Shown here piece by piece: positions 1,998 through 48,674 of a stretch of DNA of 64,000 nucleotides. The notes beneath the pieces were generated by a model. That model saw only the letters and a program-made list of their open reading frames with translations, searched no databases and was not told where the DNA came from. Each line of letters begins with the position of its first letter. The stretch's first letter is position 1. The stretch is from Escherichia coli (GTDB taxonomy: Bacteria; Pseudomonadota; Gammaproteobacteria; Enterobacterales; Enterobacteriaceae). A program made the translations under genes and the position numbers. Where the stretch lies: NCBI RefSeq assembly GCF_022846255.1, contig NZ_AP025682.1. One strand, given 5' to 3'.

Positions 1998-4532
1998 TTA
2001 ATTACTCCCAAACATATCTTTAATCCAACCGGCTACACCGTCGCTGTCTTTCTGCTCTTGCTGAGCAGGTTGCTGTTGCGGCTGTTGCTGCGGCTGAGAA
2101 GACTGATCAAACGGATTGCCTGACGGTTGCTGCTGCATCTCACTCTGCTGGCACAGCGATTGCGGATCGCTGGTCCAGACCGGCAAGACACGCATACCAC
2201 CGCTGCAAACAAAGTTGCCGTCGTAGTCCACGCCCATATCTGCAATATCTTCTGGCGGAACAAGATTCAGCGGCGTTGGCGTCTGGTTAGCCAGATAACG
2301 CTGATAAATCGACATTGCCCCGCTGGCACCATACAGTTTGGTCGGCTGGTTGTTATCACGGCCGACCCAGGTGATGGTCACCGTGCTCCCATCAATGCCC
2401 GCAAACCAGGTATCTACGTTATTGTTGGTAGTCCCTGTTTTCCCTGCCAGATGCAGGTTCGGGTATTTCGCCCCAAGCTGACGTCCCGTACCGCGTTGTA
2501 CAACCTGCTGCATGGTCCATAGTGTCAGATACGCCGCCTGCGCCGGAACAGCGCGTTCCGCCTGCGGGAAGCTCTGATACAACACCTTGCCGTCTTCTGC
2601 GATGACTGAACGTAGCGCGGAAAGCGGAGCACGATTACCACCGCTGGCGATAGTCTGGAAGGCCTGCGCCACTTCGATTGGCGTTAAGTTCAACGCCCCC
2701 AACAACATTGCTGGAACTGGATTCAGTTGATCTTTCGGCACACCCAGTTTAATCCAGGTCTCCGTAACCGCAGGCAGCCCCAACGCCATGCCCAGATTCA
2801 CCGTCGGCACGTTCATCGAACGGGTCAACGCATCTACCAGCATCACCCTGCCACTTTCGCTATAACGACGATCATCGTTCTGCGGTGACCAGACCTGGCC
2901 ATTCGGCTGACGCAGCGCGATTGGCGCATCGGCAATCCACGTATTTAAACGATATATTTTCGGCTGGCTTAAGGCCGTTAGATAAGTCGCTGGTTTTGCA
3001 AGGGAACCAATCGAACGACGCGCCTGCATCGCACGATTGTAGCCCGCAAACTGCGGCTCAGAACCACCGACCATCGCACGAACTTCACCGCTAAAGCGGT
3101 CAACAACCACAATCGCGGTTTCAAGATCGCTCAACTTACGCTGTTTCTTCAGTGCCGGAATGCCTTCCACGGCGGCTTTTTCTGCCGCGTCCTGGGCCAC
3201 CGAGTCAAAGGTAGTGAAGATCTTCACGCCGGAGAGATCTTTTACCTTATCGCCTAATTTCGCCTGCAGCTCCTGACGCACCAGCTGCATAAAGGCTGGC
3301 TGAGGAGAGATCACCCCACCGCGCGGCTGAACACCCAGCGGACGCGCACTCAGCATGTCGTAGAGTTCTTGATCAATAATTTGTTGCTGTTGCAGCAAAC
3401 GTAGTACCAGGTTACGTCGCTCCAGCGCCAGTTTCGGGTTACGCCACGGGTTGTAGATGGACGCCCCTTTCACCATACCCACCAACAGCGCCTGCTGATC
3501 GAGGCTCAATTCTTCTACCGGGCGACCAAAGTAATACAAGCTCGCCAGCGGGAAGCCGCGGATTTCGTTGTCGCCGCTCTGACCGAGATACACCTCGTTC
3601 ATATACAGCTCAAGAATACGGTCTTTGCTGTAACGCGCGTCCATGATCAGCGCCATGTAGGCTTCGTTCGCTTTACGCCAGTAAGAACGCTCGCTGGAGA
3701 GGAACAAGTTTTTAACCAACTGTTGCGTCAGCGTACTCGCCCCCTGCACCGTGCGTCCGGCAGTCAGGTTTGCCAGCACCGCACGTCCGATTGAGTAGAG
3801 ACTGATCCCATCATGCTCGTAGAAATGACGGTCTTCTGTCGCCAGCAAAGTATCCACCAGCAAATCCGGGAAACCACTGCGCGGCACAAACAGACGCTGC
3901 TCACCGTTTGGCGAAGAAATCATGGTGATCAGGCGCGGATCAAGACGGAAGAAACCGAACTGACGGTTGTTCTCCATATTGACGATCGTCGCCAGATGAT
4001 CGCCATCAAAGGTCAGACGTGCGCGCACCTGCCCTTCTTTGCTGTCCGGGAAATCAAACGGACGGCGGATCATCTCAATGCTGTTGGCCTGTACGGTAAA
4101 CTCACCAGGACGGGTCATTTTCGAGACCTGGCGATACTGGGTCGCCTCCAGCAGCTTCACCATCTCGTTCTTGCTGATGGTCATGTCTGGCTCAAGGTTG
4201 ACCATTCGGCCATAAACTGCCGCGGGCAATTGCCAGACCTTGCCATCAATACGGCTGCGAATTTTTTGATCGAGATAAACGCCGTAAATGGCGATCAGCA
4301 CGGCAAAAACGATAGCCAGTTTTAGCAGCAGCCATAGCCAGCCGCGTTTGCCACGAGGCTTACGCCCTTTGCCTTTGCCCTTACCTTTGCGCGGCATCGG
4401 TTCTTCATCCTCATAGTCATCATAATCGTCGTAATCATCGTCATCTTCGTAACGACGACGGCTTACCTTTTGTTTGACCGGACGCGTCGGTTTCCCTTTG
4501 CGTCCAATTGGCTCGCGGTCATTCCCGGCCAT
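1998..4532 (-). CDS. mrcB: Penicillin-binding protein 1B (bifunctional glycosyltransferase/transpeptidase)
   Basis: ORF track 1998..4547; recognised start [21 protein letters not shown] at 4532 (844 aa); acidic [15 protein letters not shown] tract, TM helix, transglycosylase and transpeptidase regions. Confidence 0.93.
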
Positions 4533-4625
4533 GCTTTTTCTCCGCAATATTCAGGCGCAAAAGCCCGATTTTCTGTTCTTCTGTTGCAAGACAGAAGAAG
4601 ATATCTCTCAAATTTGCTTTGGTCT

Positions 4626-7055
4626 TCACGAATACTTTTTCGTTCGTCGCGTCGGTGCGGTGTTTGCCGGGTCGTCCGGCCAGACATGTTTGGGATAACG
4701 CCCTTTCATCTCTTTTTGCACCTCACGGTACGCTCCTTTCCAGAAGGCGCTCAAATCACGCGTGATTTGCAGCGGCCTTTGGGCAGGGGAAAGCAACTCC
4801 AGCACCAACGGTACGCGCCCCTGGGCGATAGTCGGATTAGTGGCCTCACCAAACATCTCCTGCATTCTCACCGCCAGCGCGGGCGGGTTATCTTCATGGT
4901 AACGAATGGCGATCCGGCTTCCCGTCGGCACAGTGTAATGCGCAGGCAATTCACTATCCAGACGTTGCTGCATTACCCAATCAAGTAATCCACGCAGTGC
5001 CTGATAAATATCGAGTGATTTCAGGCCGCGTAGCGAATGTACGCCTGTCATATGCGGCAGTAGCCACGTTTCCAGCGTCGCCAACAAACTTTCATCATCA
5101 ACCGCTGGCCAGTCATATTCCGGCAACCACTTTGCGGCGCATAACAAACGCAAGCGTAGCTGTTCCGCTTCCGCCGTCCAGTTGAGCACGCTTAAACCTT
5201 TATCACGAATGCCGTTAAGCATCGCCTGATGCAACTCGTCTTCCGAGGGTTTCGCCAGCGGTTGCACTTTTACCGTCAACTGACCAATTTGCAGCCGACG
5301 CCAGGCTTTCAGCGTACCTTGCGCGTCATCCCACTCCACGGTGTCCGATTGCTGTACCAGCTGCGGGCAGCGTTGTACTAACTCATCAATATCGACCGGC
5401 AGCGCCAGTAAAATCCGTGCATCCGGTGAGGCGCTGCCCTGCAATAATAACGGTGCGATCAACCATTCGTGGCGGCTTAGCGCATCGTCGGCATCGAGCA
5501 TCGCCCCCATGCCGTTCGCCAGTTGATAGCGTTCATCTTGCCCACGGCGACGAGCAATGCGATCGGCATACGCTCTGGCAAGTAGCGGCGCGATAAGCGA
5601 ACTGTCTGCCTCACCGCCGCGTACGTTTAAGCGTTTTAACAGTTGCTGACTACGTTGCTGCCAGGCGGGTTGATTGCGCGAAAAAGCCACGCCCAGGTCA
5701 CTATTGCCCATCCGTGGCGGCTCTTCGAGAATGGCGGCAATTTTTGCCGCGGTAGCAGCTTCGTCGTCGTTCTTCGCGCTAACCAGCATTGCCGCTAAAC
5801 GCGGATCGTTACCCAGCGCTGCCATTTTTTGCCCTTGCGCGCTTAGGCGTTCACCGTCCAGCGCCCCCAGCATCCGTAACAGGCGTTTCGCGGCCAGTAG
5901 ATTCACCGTTGGCGGTTGATCCATCCAGCTCATCTGCGCCGGATCGCTGCATCCCCATTGCAGTAATTCCATCAGCAAACCGGAAAGATCGCTTTGTAAG
6001 ATCTCCGGTTCACTTTGTGCGGCAGCGCGTTCTGCTTGTTCTTTGGCGATTAAATGCAGGCAGATACCCGGCTCCAGACGCCCGGCACGCCCGGCACGTT
6101 GCGTCATCGACGCCTGACTAACGCGTTGAGTAACCAGCCGCGTAAGCCCTGTACGCGGATCAAAACGCGCCACCCTTTCCTGGGCACAATCCACCACCAG
6201 ACGAATACCTTCGATGGTTAAACTTGTTTCAGCAATATTGGTCGCCAGCACCACTTTACGCATCCCTTGCGGTGCCGGGAGGATCGCTTTTCGCTGATCG
6301 TTCAGCGACAACGCGCCATACAGCGGGCAGAGCAACACATCACTGCCGATGCGTGAAGCCAGTTGTTCCTGCACACGCTGAATTTCTCCGACGCCAGGTA
6401 AAAATAACAGTAATGATCCATTTTCCTGACGCAGCATTTCGGCGGTGGCAACCGCGACGGCTTCGTCAAAACGCTGATGAGCGGGCAGCGGCAAATAACG
6501 GCGTTCAACCGGAAACGAGCGCCCTTCTGAGATGACGACGGGCGCTTCTGGCAGCATTTGCTGCAAGCGGTCGTTGTCCAGCGTAGCCGACATAATCAGC
6601 AGTTTAAGGTCATCACGCAGACCTTGTTGCACATCGAGTAACAGCGCCAACGCCAAATCCGCCTGCAAGCTGCGCTCATGAAATTCATCAAGGATCACCA
6701 ATCCAACACCGCTCAGTTCCGGGTCACGCTGGATCATCCGCGTCAGCACGCCTTCGGTAACCACTTCCAGGCGGGTATTCGGCCCGACGCAGTTTTGCGC
6801 ACGCATCCGGTAGCCAACGGTATCGCCTGGCTTTTCGTTAAGCAGCTCCGCCAGTCGTTGCGCAACGTTACGCGCCGCCAGACGACGCGGCTCCAGCAGG
6901 ATAATTTTCCCGTTAATGCCGGGATGCGCCAGCAGTTGCAGCGGCAGCCAGGTTGATTTCCCGGCCCCGGTCGGCGCACTTAATAACACCTGCGATGCAC
7001 CATCGAGGGCAGCAAGTAACTCAGGTAAGACGGCAGCAACGGGCAACGACGACAC
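4626..7055 (-). CDS. hrpB: ATP-dependent RNA helicase HrpB (DEAH-box)
   Basis: ORF track 4626..7100; GTG at 7055 gives (M)SSLPVAAVLPELL N-terminus and 809 aa; Walker A SAPTGAGKST, DEFH motif. Confidence 0.88.
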   Translation of the reverse strand: MSSLPVAAVLPELLAALDGASQVLLSAPTGAGKSTWLPLQLLAHPGINGKIILLEPRRLAARNVAQRLAELLNEKPGDTVGYRMRAQNCVGPNTRLEVVTEGVLTRMIQRDPELSGVGLVILDEFHERSLQADLALALLLDVQQGLRDDLKLLIMSATLDNDRLQQMLPEAPVVISEGRSFPVERRYLPLPAHQRFDEAVAVATAEMLRQENGSLLLFLPGVGEIQRVQEQLASRIGSDVLLCPLYGALSLNDQRKAILPAPQGMRKVVLATNIAETSLTIEGIRLVVDCAQERVARFDPRTGLTRLVTQRVSQASMTQRAGRAGRLEPGICLHLIAKEQAERAAAQSEPEILQSDLSGLLMELLQWGCSDPAQMSWMDQPPTVNLLAAKRLLRMLGALDGERLSAQGQKMAALGNDPRLAAMLVSAKNDDEAATAAKIAAILEEPPRMGNSDLGVAFSRNQPAWQQRSQQLLKRLNVRGGEADSSLIAPLLARAYADRIARRRGQDERYQLANGMGAMLDADDALSRHEWLIAPLLLQGSASPDARILLALPVDIDELVQRCPQLVQQSDTVEWDDAQGTLKAWRRLQIGQLTVKVQPLAKPSEDELHQAMLNGIRDKGLSVLNWTAEAEQLRLRLLCAAKWLPEYDWPAVDDESLLATLETWLLPHMTGVHSLRGLKSLDIYQALRGLLDWVMQQRLDSELPAHYTVPTGSRIAIRYHEDNPPALAVRMQEMFGEATNPTIAQGRVPLVLELLSPAQRPLQITRDLSAFWKGAYREVQKEMKGRYPKHVWPDDPANTAPTRRTKKYS

Positions 7056-13743: not shown

Positions 13744-16332
13744 GTGACTATTAAATCTACTAATCACCTTACCCACATCGCCACGTTTTGCGCTCTGCTG
13801 TATAGCAATAGTGCTTTATGCGCTGAACTCGTCGAATATGACCATACATTTCTGATGGGAAAGGATGCTTCAAATATCGACCTTAGTCGGTATACAGAAG
13901 GCAACCCGACACTACCTGGCATTTACGATGTCAGTGTGTATGTTAACGATCAACCCATCATGAGCCAAAGCATTGCTTTTACTGTTATTGAAGGTAAAAA
14001 GAACGCTCAGGCCTGCATTACGCAGAAAAATTTATTGCAATTTCATATCAGTTCACCAGACAAGAATAGCGAAAAAGCCATTTTGCTTAAGCGAGACGAC
14101 GATCTTGGTGATTGCCTCAATCTGGCTGAAATGATCCCTCAATCATCCATTCGTTACGATGTTAACGATCAACGCCTGGATATCGACGTCCCCCAGGCAT
14201 GGATTATGAAGAATTATCAAAACTATGTTGATCCCTCTTTGTGGGAAAATGGCATTAATGCAGCCATGCTTTCCTACAACCTCAACGGATATCACAGTGA
14301 AAGTCCAGGCAGAACAAATGACAGTATCTACGCGGCATTCAACGGTGGGATAAACTTAGGTGCCTGGCGGTTACGTGCCTCGGGTAACTACAACTGGATG
14401 ACCAATGTCCATAGCGATTACGATTTTCAGAATCGCTATTTACAACGCGATCTTGCGTCACTACGTTCACAACTGGTTATTGGTGAATCTTACACAACCG
14501 GCGAAACCTTCGATTCAGTCAGTATTCGCGGTATTCGTTTATACAGTGACAGTCGAATGCTGCCTCCGGTATTAGCCAGTTTTGCGCCAATCATTCATGG
14601 CGTAGCGAATACCAATGCCAAAGTAACCGTTATGCAAAATGGTTATAAGATCTATGAAACGACGGTGCCGCCAGGAGCTTTTACCATTGACGATCTTAGC
14701 CCATCAGGTTATGGCAGCGATCTCATTGTGACTATCGAAGAAGCTGATGGCACAAAACGGACGTTCTCCCAGCCATTTTCATCTGTTGTGCAAATGCTGC
14801 GCCCTGGCGTTGGTCGCTGGGATATTAGCGCCGGTCAGGTTTTAAAAGACAGTATCCAGGATGAGCCTAATTTATTTCAAGCCAGCTACTACTATGGTTT
14901 GAATAACTACCTGACAGGATATACCGGTATTCAGCTAACTGATAATAACTATACCGCCGGATTGCTGGGGCTTGGTATGAATACCCCCGTGGGGGCTTTT
15001 TCTGTCGATGTTACTCACTCAAATGTCAGCATTCCGGATGATAAAACCTATCAAGGACAAAGCTACCGTATTTCCTGGAACAAGTTATTTGAAAATACCA
15101 GTACATCATTAAATATCGCGGCCTATCGCTACTCCACCCAGCATTATCTGGGCCTCAATGATGCGCTGACGCTGATTGATGAAGTAGAACATCCTGAGCA
15201 AGATCTTGAGCCTAAATCCATGCGCAATTACTCGCGCATGAAAAATCAGGTCACGGTCAGTATCAACCAACCGCTGAAATTTGAGAAAAAGGATTACGGT
15301 TCATTTTATCTCTCGGGAAGCTGGTCAGATTACTGGGCCTCCGGGCAAAACAGTACTAATTACTCTATTGGTTATAGCAATAGTGCGTCCTGGGGCAGTT
15401 ACAGTATCAGTGCTCAACGTTCGTTGAATGAAGATGGTCAAACCGACGATAGCATTTATCTCAGCTTCACGATTCCAATAGAAAATTTACTGGGTACGGA
15501 ACACCGCAGCTCCGGCTTCCAGAGTATTGATACACAATTAAACAGCGACTTTAAGGGTAATAACCAACTCAATATCAGCAGTAGTGGTTACAGCGATACC
15601 AATCGTATCAGCTACAGCGTAAACACGGGTTATATGATGAATAAATCCAGTGATGACCTGAGTTATATCGGCGGTTATGCCAGTTATGAATCGCCGTGGG
15701 GAACGCTGTCAGGTTCAGCCTCAGCAAGCAGTGATAATAGTCGCCAATTCTCACTCAATACTGATGGTGGATTTGTGTTACATAGCGGCGGGCTGACGTT
15801 CAGTAATGACAGTTTTAGTGATTCCGACGCTCTGGCTGTCATTCAGGCGCCAGGAGCAAAAGGCGCTCGTATTAACTACGGAAACAGCACCGTAGACCGC
15901 TGGGGTTATGGTGTGACCAGCGCCCTTTCGCCATACCATGAAAACCGTATCGCACTGGACATTAACGATCTGGAAAACGATGTTGAATTGAAAAGCACCA
16001 GTACTGTCGCCGTCCCGCGCCAGGGAGCCGTCGTCTTTGCTGATTTTGAAACAGTTCAGGGACAATCGGCAATTATGAATATCGTGCGAAGCGATGGTAA
16101 AAATATTCCATTTGCAGCGGATATTTATGATGAACAAAACAATATCATCGGCAACGTAGGTCAGGGTGGTCAGGCCTTTGTTCGCGGTATCGGGCAGGAA
16201 GGAAATATACGAATTACCTGGATTGAAGAGGGCAAACCAGTCAGTTGTTTTGCTCATTACCAACAAAACACGACATCAGAAAAAATAGCACAATCTATTA
16301 TTCTTAACGGGCTTCGTTGTCAGATACAGTAA
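13744..16332 (+). CDS. htrE: Fimbrial outer-membrane usher
   Basis: ORF 13744..16332 (862 aa, GTG start); usher-family sequence with C-terminal ...LNGLRCQIQ; positioned after the chaperone gene. Confidence 0.85.
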   Translation: MTIKSTNHLTHIATFCALLYSNSALCAELVEYDHTFLMGKDASNIDLSRYTEGNPTLPGIYDVSVYVNDQPIMSQSIAFTVIEGKKNAQACITQKNLLQFHISSPDKNSEKAILLKRDDDLGDCLNLAEMIPQSSIRYDVNDQRLDIDVPQAWIMKNYQNYVDPSLWENGINAAMLSYNLNGYHSESPGRTNDSIYAAFNGGINLGAWRLRASGNYNWMTNVHSDYDFQNRYLQRDLASLRSQLVIGESYTTGETFDSVSIRGIRLYSDSRMLPPVLASFAPIIHGVANTNAKVTVMQNGYKIYETTVPPGAFTIDDLSPSGYGSDLIVTIEEADGTKRTFSQPFSSVVQMLRPGVGRWDISAGQVLKDSIQDEPNLFQASYYYGLNNYLTGYTGIQLTDNNYTAGLLGLGMNTPVGAFSVDVTHSNVSIPDDKTYQGQSYRISWNKLFENTSTSLNIAAYRYSTQHYLGLNDALTLIDEVEHPEQDLEPKSMRNYSRMKNQVTVSINQPLKFEKKDYGSFYLSGSWSDYWASGQNSTNYSIGYSNSASWGSYSISAQRSLNEDGQTDDSIYLSFTIPIENLLGTEHRSSGFQSIDTQLNSDFKGNNQLNISSSGYSDTNRISYSVNTGYMMNKSSDDLSYIGGYASYESPWGTLSGSASASSDNSRQFSLNTDGGFVLHSGGLTFSNDSFSDSDALAVIQAPGAKGARINYGNSTVDRWGYGVTSALSPYHENRIALDINDLENDVELKSTSTVAVPRQGAVVFADFETVQGQSAIMNIVRSDGKNIPFAADIYDEQNNIIGNVGQGGQAFVRGIGQEGNIRITWIEEGKPVSCFAHYQQNTTSEKIAQSIILNGLRCQIQ

Positions 16333-43171: not shown

Positions 43172-45835
43172 TTACGCCAGACGCGGGTTAACTTTATCTG
43201 CATCGATGTTGAATTTGGCGATTGCGTCAGCAACCACTTTCTTATCGATTTCGCCACGTTTAGCCAGTTCGCCCAGCGCCGCAACCACGACATAAGAAGC
43301 ATCAACTTCAAAGTGGTGACGCAGGTTCTCACGGCTGTCGGAACGACCGAAGCCATCAGTACCCAGTACGCGGTAGTCGTCAGCCGGTACGTAAGTACGG
43401 ACCTGCTCAGCGAACAGTTTCATATAGTCGGTAGATGCCACTGCCGGAGCGTCGTTCATCACCTGAGCGATATACGGAACGCGCGGAGTTTCCAGCGGGT
43501 GCAGCATGTTCCAGCGTTCACAATCCTGACCATCACGCGCCAGTTCGGTGAAGGAAGTCACGCTATAAACGTCAGAACCTACGCCGAAATCTTTCGCCAG
43601 GATCTCAGCTGCTTCACGGACGTGACGCAGGATAGAACCGGAGCCGAGCAGCTGAACTTTACCTTTGCTACCTTCAATGGTTTCGAGTTTGTAGATACCT
43701 TTACGGATACCTTCCTCAGCACCTTCCGGCATTGCCGGCATGTGGTAGTTTTCGTTCAGCGTAGTGATGTAGTAGTAAACGTTCTCTTGTTTTTCACCGT
43801 ACATACGCTCCAGACCGTCATGCATGATGACAGCAACTTCGTAAGCGTAAGCAGGGTCGTAAGAGATACAGTTCGGGATAGTCAGCGACTGAATGTGGCT
43901 GTGGCCATCTTCGTGCTGCAGACCTTCACCGTTCAGGGTGGTACGACCGGAAGTACCGCCGATCAGGAAGCCACGCGCTTGCTGGTCGCCAGCCGCCCAG
44001 CACAGATCGCCGATACGCTGGAAGCCGAACATCGAGTAATAGATGTAGAACGGAATCATCGGCAGATTGTTGGTGCTGTAAGAGGTCGCCGCTGCCAGCC
44101 AGGAACAACCTGCGCCCAGCTCGTTGATCCCTTCCTGCAGAATCTGACCTTTCTCGTCTTCTTTATAGTAAGCAACCTGCTCGCGGTCCTGCGGGGTGTA
44201 CTGCTGACCGTTCGGGCTGTAAATACCAATCTGACGGAACAGACCTTCCATACCGAAAGTACGCGCTTCGTCGGCGATGATCGGTACCAGACGATCTTTG
44301 ATCGACTTGTTCTTCAGCATTACGTTCAGGGCACGAACGAAAGCGATAGTGGTAGAGATCTCTTTGCTCTGCTCTTCCAGCAGCGCGCCGAAGTCTTGCA
44401 GGCTCGGCAGCTCAAGCTTCTCGGTGAAGTTCGGCTGACGGCTTGGCAGATAACCGTGCAGTTTCTGACGCTGAGCGTGCAGATAGGTATGCTCTTCAGA
44501 ACCTTCCGGGAAGGTGATGTACGGCAGTTTTTCGATATCGGCATCAGACACCGGCACATTGAAACGGTCGCGGATGTGACGCACGCCGTCCATGTTCATT
44601 TTCTTAACCTGGTGCGCGATGTTTTTACCTTCAGCCGCGTCGCCCATGCCGTAACCTTTAATGGTATGAGCAAGGATTACCGTCGCTTTGCCTTTGGTTT
44701 CCTGCGCTTTCTTGAATGCAGCGTAGATTTTCTTCGGATCGTGACCGCCACGGTTCAGCGCCCAGATCTGCTCGTCAGTCCAGTCTGCAACCAGAGCTGC
44801 GGTTTCCGGATATTTACCGAAGAAGTGTTCACGAACGTACGCACCATCTTTCGATTTGAAGGTCTGGTAGTCGCCGTCAACGGTTTCGTTCATCAGCTGG
44901 ATCAGTTTACCGCTGGTATCTTTACGCAGCAGTTCATCCCAACGGCTACCCCACATCACTTTGATCACGTTCCAGCCAGCACCTTCGAAGATGCCTTCCA
45001 GTTCGTTGATGATCTTGCCGTTACCGGTGACCGGGCCGTCAAGACGCTGCAGGTTACAGTTGATAACGAAGACCAGGTTATCCAGTTTTTCACGGGTAGC
45101 GATGGTGATCGCACCTTTGGATTCCGGTTCGTCCATTTCACCGTCGCCGAGGAACGCGTAAACGGTTTGTTTAGAGGTATCTTTCAGGCCACGGTGTTCC
45201 AGATATTTCAGGAACTTAGCCTGGTAAATAGCACCAATCGGACCCAGCCCCATAGATACGGTCGGGAACTGCCAGAATTCCGGCATCAGTTTCGGGTGCG
45301 GATAGGAAGAGAGGCCATTGCCGTGAACTTCCTGACGGAAGTTATCCAGCTGCTCCTGAGTCAGACGACCTTCCAGGAAAGCACGAGCGTAAACGCCTGG
45401 GGAGATGTGGCCCTGGAAGTAAACCAGGTCGCCGCCATCCTGCTCGTTGCGTGCACGGAAGAAGTGGTTAAAGCACACATCATAAATGGTTGCGGAAGAC
45501 TGGAAGGACGCCATGTGGCCGCCCAGTTCGAGGTCTTTTTTCGACGCACGCAGAACCGTCATGATGGCGTTCCAGCGGATAGCTGAACGAATACGGCGTT
45601 CCAGTTCCAGATTACCCGGATACTCCGGTTGTTCTTCAACGGGGATGGTGTTGATGTAGTTGCTGATACCGGTGCCTGCGGCTACGTTGACACCGCCTTT
45701 GCGGGCTTCAGCAAGCAGTTGGTCGATCAGATACTGAGCACGCTCAACACCTTCTTCACGGATGACCGATTCGATCGCCTGGAGCCAGTCGCGAGTTTCG
45801 ATCGGATCCACGTCATTTGGGAAACGTTCTGACAT
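43172..45835 (-). CDS. aceE: Pyruvate dehydrogenase E1 component
   Basis: ORF 43172..45835 (887 aa) [41 protein letters not shown]. Confidence 0.95.
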
Positions 45836-45995: not shown

Positions 45996-46760
45996 CTAAT
46001 TCTTTCGTTGCTCCAGACGACGCAGAGAACGCTCACGGCGGCTCTCTTCACGGCTTCTGTCGAGCAAAATTTCTTCGATAAAGGCCAGATGGCGATGCGA
46101 TGCTTCGCGCGCTTCTTCCGGCTTACCGGCCATAATCGCTTCAAATATACGGGTGCGGTGACTACTCACCAGCGGCAGCATCTCGCGACGCGAATAGAGC
46201 AATTCGAAGTTCTGGCGGACATTCTGGGCCAACATCGGCTCCATACACCTTAGCAGATGAAGCAGAACCACATTGTGGGCCGCTTCGGTGACGGCAATCT
46301 GATACTGGAGTACGGCGTTTGATTCCGCGTCCAGATCGCCAGACTGCTGCGCCAGCTCTATAGCGTGGTGGAGTTCACGGATGCGTTCCTTGTCTTCATC
46401 GGTACTACGCAGCGCGGCGTAATAAGCGGCGATACCTTCCAGGGCGTGTCGTGTTTCGAGCAAGTCATACTGTGATTCAGGATGGTCGGAGAGCAGCTCC
46501 ACCAGCGGATCGCTGAAGCTTTGCCATAGGCTGCTCTGGACAAAAGTGCCGCCACCCTGGCGACGAAGCAACAAGCCCTTCGCTTCGAGACGTTGAATCG
46601 CCTCACGCAATGAGGGACGGGAGACGTCAAACTGTTTTGCCAGTTCGCGTTCCGGTGGGAGTTTTTCGCCCGGGCGGAGAGTGCCTTCGAGGATCAAAAA
46701 CTCCAGTTGCTGCTCAATCACATCGGAGAGTTTTGGTTGGCGGATTTTGCTGTAGGCCAT
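45996..46760 (-). CDS. pdhR: Pyruvate dehydrogenase complex repressor PdhR (GntR/FadR family)
   Basis: Within ORF 45996..46793; ATG 46760 gives [55 protein letters not shown] (254 aa). Confidence 0.92.
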
Positions 46761-46791
46761 GAGTTCCTGTCTTAAGCCACTTGCCGAAGTC

Positions 46792-46808
46792 AATTGGTCT
46801 TACCAATT
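46792..46808. promoter_or_regulatory. PdhR operator (perfect 17-bp palindrome) in the pdhR leader
   Basis: AATTGGTCTTACCAATT at 46792-46808, ~32 bp upstream of the pdhR ATG. Confidence 0.7.
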
Positions 46809-47300
46809 TCATGTCTGTGACGCTAAAGTAACAAAGTATTCACCTTATGTCCATACATGTTTTGATTGAAATCATGAAACTGTGCACATTTTAACAACTT
46901 GACATATATAACGTTTCAAAGTTGTAACTATGCACAAATGTAGACTTTACGTAGGAAAGGGATTTTTTAACGATTATTAAACTATAAAAATCCGAATTGA
47001 ACCGATTCACTTACCAATTTTGTGATTTTTAATTCAATTAAAACGAATTTAAATTCATTCTGCATATTGAGAGGGGTTGAGGCTGAGCTTTACAAACGGT
47101 TTCTTTTTAAGCAACTCATCTTCAACCATGCATAAAGCGGGTGCATTCGCTGTCGCATACCATTATTCTTGATCTGACGGAAGTCTTTTTGTAACAATTC
47201 AAACTTCTTTGATGTAAACAAATTAATACAACAAACGGAATTGCAAACTTACACACGCATCACTGCGTAGATCAAAAAAACAATCACCGCACGAGGTTTC

Positions 47301-48674
47301 ATGATGGAAGGTCAACAGCACGGCGAGCAGCTAAAGCGCGGCCTTAAAAACCGCCATATTCAGCTTATCGCGCTGGGTGGCGCGATAGGGACCGGGTTAT
47401 TCCTGGGTAGCGCCTCCGTAATACAGTCCGCAGGGCCAGGGATTATCCTGGGTTACGCCATTGCTGGTTTTATCGCCTTTCTGATCATGCGTCAGCTGGG
47501 TGAAATGGTGGTCGAAGAACCTGTCGCAGGCTCCTTTAGCCACTTTGCTTATAAATACTGGGGCAGTTTTGCCGGTTTCGCCTCTGGCTGGAACTACTGG
47601 GTACTGTACGTTTTAGTTGCCATGGCAGAGCTGACTGCCGTGGGTAAATACATTCAGTTCTGGTATCCGGAAATCCCAACCTGGGTTTCTGCCGCCGTGT
47701 TCTTTGTGGTGATCAACGCCATCAACCTGACAAACGTAAAAGTGTTTGGCGAGATGGAGTTCTGGTTTGCCATTATCAAAGTTATCGCGGTGGTAGCGAT
47801 GATCATCTTCGGCGCCTGGCTGCTATTCAGCGGCAACGGCGGCCCGCAGGCGAGCGTTAGCAACCTGTGGGATCAGGGTGGTTTCCTGCCACACGGCTTC
47901 ACCGGTCTGGTGATGATGATGGCGATTATCATGTTCTCTTTCGGTGGTCTGGAACTGGTGGGGATCACCGCAGCAGAAGCTGATAACCCGGAGCAAAGTA
48001 TCCCAAAAGCAACTAACCAGGTTATCTACCGCATCCTGATTTTCTATATTGGTTCGTTAGCCGTTCTGCTCTCACTAATGCCGTGGACCCGCGTTACCGC
48101 CGATACCAGTCCGTTTGTGCTGATCTTCCACGAGTTAGGCGATACCTTTGTAGCGAATGCGCTGAATATCGTGGTACTGACTGCTGCGCTCTCCGTGTAC
48201 AACAGCTGCGTATATTGCAACAGCCGTATGCTGTTCGGTCTGGCACAACAAGGGAACGCGCCAAAAGCGCTGGCGTCTGTCGATAAACGCGGCGTACCGG
48301 TTAACACTATTCTGGTGTCTGCGCTGGTTACGGCATTGTGCGTACTGATTAACTACCTTGCCCCAGAGTCCGCTTTCGGACTGTTAATGGCGCTGGTGGT
48401 ATCTGCACTGGTCATCAACTGGGCGATGATCAGTCTGGCGCATATGAAATTCCGTCGTGCCAAACAAGAACAAGGCGTGGTAACTCGCTTCCCTGCCCTG
48501 CTTTATCCGCTGGGTAACTGGATCTGCCTGCTGTTTATGGCGGCGGTACTGGTGATTATGCTGATGACCCCAGGAATGGCGATTTCGGTATACCTGATCC
48601 CGGTATGGCTGATCGTGTTAGGTATCGGCTATCTGTTTAAAGAGAAAACCGCCAAAGCCGTAAAAGCGCATTAA
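47301..48674 (+). CDS. aroP: Aromatic amino acid:H+ symporter (APC family)
   Basis: ORF 47301..48674 (457 aa) MMEGQQHGEQLKRGLKNRHIQLIALGGAIGTGLFLGSASVIQSAGPG; 12-TM permease. Confidence 0.93.
   Translation: MMEGQQHGEQLKRGLKNRHIQLIALGGAIGTGLFLGSASVIQSAGPGIILGYAIAGFIAFLIMRQLGEMVVEEPVAGSFSHFAYKYWGSFAGFASGWNYWVLYVLVAMAELTAVGKYIQFWYPEIPTWVSAAVFFVVINAINLTNVKVFGEMEFWFAIIKVIAVVAMIIFGAWLLFSGNGGPQASVSNLWDQGGFLPHGFTGLVMMMAIIMFSFGGLELVGITAAEADNPEQSIPKATNQVIYRILIFYIGSLAVLLSLMPWTRVTADTSPFVLIFHELGDTFVANALNIVVLTAALSVYNSCVYCNSRMLFGLAQQGNAPKALASVDKRGVPVNTILVSALVTALCVLINYLAPESAFGLLMALVVSALVINWAMISLAHMKFRRAKQEQGVVTRFPALLYPLGNWICLLFMAAVLVIMLMTPGMAISVYLIPVWLIVLGIGYLFKEKTAKAVKAH

Follow-up and report, generated by a model that had tools for sequence, protein, structure and literature searches.

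Results

The DNA analysed here, called the window throughout, is a stretch of 64 kb from Escherichia coli in which the coding sequence of pdhR occupies 45996-46760 on the minus strand, followed by aceE, and that of aroP lies divergently at 47301-48674 on the plus strand. Between them is an intergenic spacer of 540 bp (46761-47300) with a GC content of 35%, compared with 51% for the window, in agreement with the preliminary description of this DNA, which had placed its observation in an AT-rich pdhR-aroP intergenic region. The spacer has matches in 5,423 of the 5,426 complete E. coli genomes and differs from that of K-12 at six positions, none of which falls in a feature treated here. The transcription start of pdhR, given as K-12 122034 in a table of start sites (PMC3415461) and by 5'RACE (PMC2759082), maps via the K-12 alignment to 46818 on the minus strand, 58 nt 5' of the ATG, and the start of aroP, K-12 121676 in the former source (PMC3415461), corresponds to 47176 on the plus strand, 125 nt 5' of the ATG. 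A minor start has also been reported within pdhR at K-12 122612 (window position ~46240), 405 nt upstream of aceE, besides the known aceE promoter (PMC3415461). For the comparison between species I used one genome per species, which resulted in 80 Enterobacteriaceae loci with pdhR, from which aroP is divergent in nearly all; the length of the spacer ranges from 526 to 653 bp across genera.

The true PdhR operator, AATTGGTCTTACCAATT, is located at 46792-46808, which is +11 to +27 of the pdhR transcript, and has no mismatches to the consensus. It is kept in all 80 species, with columns that are 94-100% identical, and is found at -47 to -50 from the ATG in all loci except two with longer leaders (-57 and -65). 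The preliminary description had noticed that the 9-mer TTACCAATT, identical to one half-site of this operator, recurs some 200 bp further upstream, and both the sequence and the coordinates bear this out: the 9-mer is present at 47011-47019 and, as the second copy, at 46800-46808 within the operator. The common word is even longer, as the 11-mer CTTACCAATTT at 46799-46809 is exactly that at 47010-47020, 211 bp apart. Over the whole window the 9-mer occurs twice where 0.67 occurrences are expected, a number that is equalled in 17 of 100 shuffles. In simulations of AT-rich spacers, some 9-mer of the operator recurs with a probability of about 0.03, and for an 11-mer from the operator extended by 3-4 bases at either end the probability of recurrence is about 0.005. 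The recurrence is thus nominally unusual, yet the word was picked after it had been seen, and the excess over chance depends on the test that is chosen.

The upstream copy had been described as part of a loose palindrome. The 25-mer in question, AATTGAACCGATTCACTTACCAATT, is indeed present at 46995-47019, but as a palindrome it is poor and off-centre, since only its outer arms of 5 bp (AATTG and CAATT) pair. A true palindrome of 12 bp is located at 46998-47009, centred 3.5 bp off the centre of the 25-mer, and the loose palindrome is an off-centre view of this 12-bp palindrome together with trivial AATTG/CAATT ends. A reading of the palindromes as an RNA or a terminator was dropped, as Rfam returned no RNA families in 46600-47400 and a simple promoter and terminator scan of the spacer gave no match.

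In order to judge the upstream word as a PdhR site, I scored it with matrices built either from the 28 boxes that are given in Table 1 of a genomic SELEX study of PdhR (PMC7660256) or from the six strongest of its known targets. With the 28-site matrix the operator reaches 19.5 bits and with the six strong sites 22.8 bits, whereas the best 17-mer that holds the word, CGATTCACTTACCAATT at 47003-47019, scores 0.5 and 1.6 bits, respectively. An equal or better site is found in 98% (28-site matrix) or 91% (6-site matrix) of random Markov-1 540-mers with the composition of the spacer. The comparison against an intergenic background, which the preliminary description had proposed as a check, therefore turns out non-significant. 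Compared with the PdhR box AATTGGTnnnACCAATT, an operator of the GntR/FadR subfamily, the word has the same right half-site and spacer bases, CTTACCAATT, but it differs in having neither the left half nor the GGT core: at 47003-47019 the right half matches at 7/7 positions and the left half at 1/7, a total of 8/14 consensus positions, with TCA as the left core where GGT is required. A full-site PdhR search of the window allowing at most 3 mismatches recovered, apart from the operator, a single unrelated site at 15366, and did not match 47003-47019. According to the genomic SELEX study a GGTnnnACC core is needed for tight PdhR binding, and this study lists one box in the aroP/pdhR spacer, at K-12 122052 (PMC7660256). 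The offset between peak and box is 86 bp here, which is typical of that table; its resolution, with fragments of 200-300 bp and typical peak offsets of ~90 bp (PMC7660256), could miss a weak second site.

The upstream word also shows a very narrow distribution. Among the 80 species, AATTGGTAA at -259 is seen only in the window, in E. coli and in Escherichia sp. E1V33, whereas in the 77 remaining species, each of which retains the operator, it is not conserved. Its counterpart in E. albertii is AGTTGGTAA, and in this comparison nothing that resembles the word was found in Salmonella, Citrobacter, Klebsiella or the other genera. In E. coli AF20, which carries an island in the spacer (see below), the homologous bases read TGTTGCTTGG and the word is absent. 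The bases at 47010-47020, CTTACCAATTT on the plus strand, are rather to be described as a linker of 11 bp, which holds the 9-mer at 47011-47019 and is of fixed length and unconserved sequence: its columns are 21-64% identical and its sequence differs in nearly every genus, while its length is 11 bp wherever the nearest ARG box is detected (42 of 75 species). The PdhR-like 11-mer fills exactly the gap between this ARG box and the 12-bp palindrome.

The palindrome itself, TGAACCGATTCA (TGAATCGGTTCA in the orientation of pdhR) at 46998-47009, K-12 121843-121854, carries a central CG and is a predicted operator for Cra/FruR, a carbon-flux regulator of the LacI family. Relative to the transcription starts, its centre is at -185.5 for pdhR and at -172.5 for aroP. 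It is the sole match without mismatches to TGAAWCGNTTCA in the 64 kb, where 0.05 are expected and 4 of 100 shuffles give any match. The published Cra/FruR motif is gcTGAAtCGaTTCAgc, with little information at the lower-case positions, and the box matches it at 10/10 informative positions. As a control, I compared TGAANCGNTTCA with the boxes of fruB, pykF and ppsA in K-12, which I take to be validated Cra operators: over the ten informative positions the two fruB boxes show 0 mismatches, pykF 1 and ppsA 2, and the aroP-pdhR box shows 0. A degenerate ARG box was also considered as a reading of TGAATCGGTTCA but discarded, as the spacing of its arms is 2 bp shorter and its centre is an invariant CG, not WWWW.

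The conservation of the box is as sharp as a footprint. The ten informative positions are 91-99% identical, the degenerate positions 5 and 8 are at 81% and 78%, and directly outside the 12 bp the identity falls to about 25%, within a range of 21-64%. A Cra-type box is present in 75 of the 78 species with an intact spacer, the exceptions being two Serratia species and a Pluralibacter metagenome-assembled genome (MAG). The main variants are TGAATCGGTTCA, TGAATCGCTTCA, TGAAACGCTTCA and TGAAACGGTTCA, so that the variation falls mainly on positions where Cra is degenerate, which is the pattern expected of a Cra/FruR motif. The distance between this box and the PdhR box is constant at 201-202 bp across genera.

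On the side of the linker that faces aroP, two ARG boxes are located in tandem. The proximal one, a half-operator for ArgR and the nearest to the Cra-type box, is found at 47021-47038 with 1 mismatch to TNTGAATWWWWATTCANW, and the second one at 47042-47059 with 2 mismatches to TNTGAATWWWWATTCANW. They are separated by 3 bp, the canonical tandem spacing, and random AT-rich spacers contain a pair with this gap in ~0.1% of cases (P ~0.001). The start of an ARG box precedes the Cra-type box by exactly 29 bp in 42 of 75 species, a distance that corresponds to the 18-bp box plus the 11-bp linker. ArgR ChIP-exo shows a double peak-pair upstream of the aroP promoter (PMC4381063), a signal that the putative boxes at 47021-47059 fit. 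The tandem ARG boxes of the arginine regulon, operators of the ArgR hexamer, have the same 18-bp form TNTGAATWWWWATTCANW and the same distance of 3 bp; the pair described here differs in being located upstream of a promoter and not over it, and it is a neighbour of the originally flagged bases, outside their coordinates.

On the side that faces pdhR, a direct repeat GTTTA-N6-GTTAA is located at 46967-46982 on the minus strand, with a period of 11 bp and columns that are 94-100% identical. It resembles the ArcA motif, and I treat it as a tentative ArcA-like site. Two ArcA binding regions have been reported upstream of pdhR (PMC3798270). Together these elements make up a cluster of fixed geometry, in which the Cra-type box has the tandem ArgR boxes at 11 bp on its aroP side and the ArcA-like repeat at ~16 bp on its pdhR side. 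A possible second Cra-like box, the asymmetric TGAAACGTTATA, is found at 46907-46918 on the minus strand, 91 bp from the box at 46998-47009 and with its centre at -94.5 from the pdhR start. It is a weak box that fits TGAAWCSNTHHW, and two of the three matches to TGAAWCSNTHHW in the window fall within the 540-bp spacer. Its left half shows conservation, but only ~70% of species retain the central CG, and the loose consensus is matched by 34 of 78; I keep it as tentative only, because the central CG is imperfectly conserved.

A different structure of the spacer is observed within E. coli itself, as about one fifth of the complete genomes match only its pdhR-proximal part. In the two such genomes that I examined, CFT073 and AF20, the aroP-pdhR spacer contains an island that encodes a TssD(Hcp)-fused DNase toxin and several immunity genes; it measures ~4 kb in AF20, and in CFT073 an IS3 element is inserted in the spacer as well. 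The island (2682-5142 of sequence L001 and 40611-44065 of sequence L084) falls between the equivalents of window positions ~46950 and ~47130. In AF20 it parts the ARG/Cra module from the promoter of aroP, and between the insertion point and about 46950 the spacer is strongly diverged. Despite these strongly diverged flanks GTGAATCGGTTCA is intact, on the pdhR side of the island.

Discussion

In this analysis I found a palindrome, a match to established operators, and selection on the informative positions of the motif, which are all the sequence-level features of a Cra operator that I checked, and the operator is a predicted one on these grounds. I consider it probable, at roughly 0.8, that 46998-47009 is a conserved Cra/FruR-type operator and that 47010-47020 is the linker next to it, and not a PdhR site. 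The Cra operators of fruB (O1 and O2), pykF and ppsA have the same 12-bp TGAAwCGnTTCA palindrome with a central CG, and the predicted box equals those of fruB at the informative positions. It is also located upstream of an operon of central carbon metabolism that is reported to be Cra-regulated: pdhR-aceEF-lpd belongs to the Cra regulon by ChIP-exo and RNA-seq (PMC5888115), and in published expression data it is repressed by Cra and activated by CRP. There are differences as well. The predicted box is unusually distant from both promoters (-185.5 and -172.5), and the outer 'gc' flanks of the 16-bp Cra consensus are unmatched in E. coli (AG...AT), while many other genera read CTGAATCGGTTCAG. 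The distal Cra site of aceBAK (Cortay et al. 1994) reportedly provides a precedent for an operator well beyond 100 bp upstream of a start; however, that site activates, whereas pdhR-aceEF-lpd is reported to be repressed by Cra. The Cra ChIP-exo paper places the site of the operon 'downstream of two promoters' (PMC5888115), which is not obviously a box at -185.5, and a literature search for the sequence of the box returned unrelated primer matches only.

It could be argued that the palindrome is owned by another regulator of the LacI family, as many operators of this family have a central CG and AA/TT arms in common, or by no regulator at all, if it were conserved for the structure of the DNA. 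I regard this as quite unlikely. Half-sites of the GalR, PurR and RbsR type differ in register or in their outer bases, and here all six positions of each arm match those of Cra (TGAAwC), as does the register relative to the central CG. The concentration of the variation on the Cra-degenerate positions, the equality with the fruB operators and the documented status of the operon as a Cra target all speak against another owner and against a structural explanation alike. A different question is which promoter the predicted Cra operator would serve. The box is slightly closer to the start of aroP than to that of pdhR (172.5 vs 185.5 bp), and the adjoining ARG boxes have been discussed as an ArgR site upstream of aroP (PMC4381063), so that the Cra-type box and the ARG boxes together could serve aroP rather than pdhR. 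This, too, is unlikely. I assign the box to pdhR and not to aroP because its distance to the pdhR promoter, seen in the fixed 201-202 bp to the PdhR operator, is invariant while the spacer varies between 526 and 653 bp, and because in AF20 the box remains with pdhR, at its usual distance, when the ~4-kb island parts the module from aroP. Moreover, the Cra ChIP-exo paper does not mention aroP in its text (PMC5888115).

The preliminary description had offered two explanations for the upstream word, an auxiliary PdhR site or a chance similarity in AT-rich DNA, and only the latter fits the evidence: the score is equalled or beaten in 91-98% of random spacers and the word is unconserved. As far as the comparisons made here go, the word appears to be a chance similarity to PdhR boxes that is peculiar to E. 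coli-type Escherichia, and the auxiliary site is without support. In its most explicit form, the auxiliary site would be a weak half-site 211 bp upstream that is contacted by, or helps, the PdhR dimer bound at the operator, with looping that tightens autorepression. The exact identity of the 11-mer with the right half of the operator plus one flanking base, the local recurrence (P 0.005-0.03) and a spacing of 211 bp, which amounts to ~20 helical turns and is nearly integral, could be cited in its favour. However, the left half is missing and the site is worth ~1 bit, the SELEX study requires GGTnnnACC for tight binding and gives a single box here (PMC7660256), the word is restricted to E. coli-type Escherichia and is absent even from the island-carrying AF20, and it occupies a linker that varies freely in sequence among other genera, all of which makes this proposal most improbable. 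In view of the recurrence (P 0.005-0.03), some weak affinity for PdhR might recently have been gained in E. coli specifically. PdhR is not known to act by looping. A more elaborate proposal would unite the ARG boxes, the 11-bp linker, the Cra box and the ArcA-like repeat into one nucleoprotein module, ~185 bp upstream of the pdhR promoter, that integrates arginine, glycolytic flux and redox signals on pyruvate dehydrogenase, and would in addition have the linker of E. coli-type Escherichia recently gain a PdhR half-site that lets operator-bound PdhR loop over 211 bp (~20 turns); taken as a whole, this conjunction is very improbable.

If the predicted Cra operator is operative, a Cra dimer would bind 46998-47009 when fructose-1-phosphate and fructose-1,6-bisphosphate are low, and would from -185.5 contribute to the control of pdhR-aceEF-lpd, where both the promoter served and the sign of the effect are what I infer. 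Since the box is far from both starts, simple occlusion of a promoter cannot be its mode of action. Cra might instead act there jointly with the asymmetric, weaker box (46907-46918, -94.5), or with its neighbours, ArgR and the ArcA-like repeat at 46967-46982.

Control of pdhR by Cra and binding of ArgR upstream of aroP are already published, and therefore no new kind of element is described here but an ordinary promoter architecture, in which nothing beyond the exact Cra box and its distal location is worth noting. For annotation, the analysis keeps a spurious second PdhR operator out of the records, and gives the flagged bases likely owners, namely the predicted Cra box and the linker to the ArgR operator. 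Should the box be confirmed as an operative site, it would represent a case, conserved throughout the family, in which Cra acts from ~185 bp upstream on the operon of pyruvate dehydrogenase. A site so placed, if operative, would fall outside the usual model of promoter occlusion, with the box staying linked to pdhR even across the island-split spacer of AF20.

Some further sequences near pdhR were observed in the course of this study. Within the gene, two Cra-like words are located at 46594-46605 (TGAATCGCCTCA) and 46132-46143 (TGAAGCGATTAT, both in the orientation of pdhR), and these may be candidates for the published Cra site downstream of the promoters of the operon; the conservation of synonymous positions in 46594-46605 and 46132-46143 is not above the average of the pdhR gene. 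In the spacer, TTGATTGAAATCAT at 46864-46877 resembles a site of the FNR or CRP type (TTGAT-N4-ATCAA), at about -50 from the pdhR start, and lies within a block of 120 bp that is almost invariant across the Enterobacteriaceae. Finally, a direct repeat of 13 nt is present as TTGTAACTATGCA at 46922-46934, in a conserved block upstream of pdhR, and as TTGTAACAATTCA at 47189-47201, just downstream of the aroP start, in the region of the weak TyrR box.
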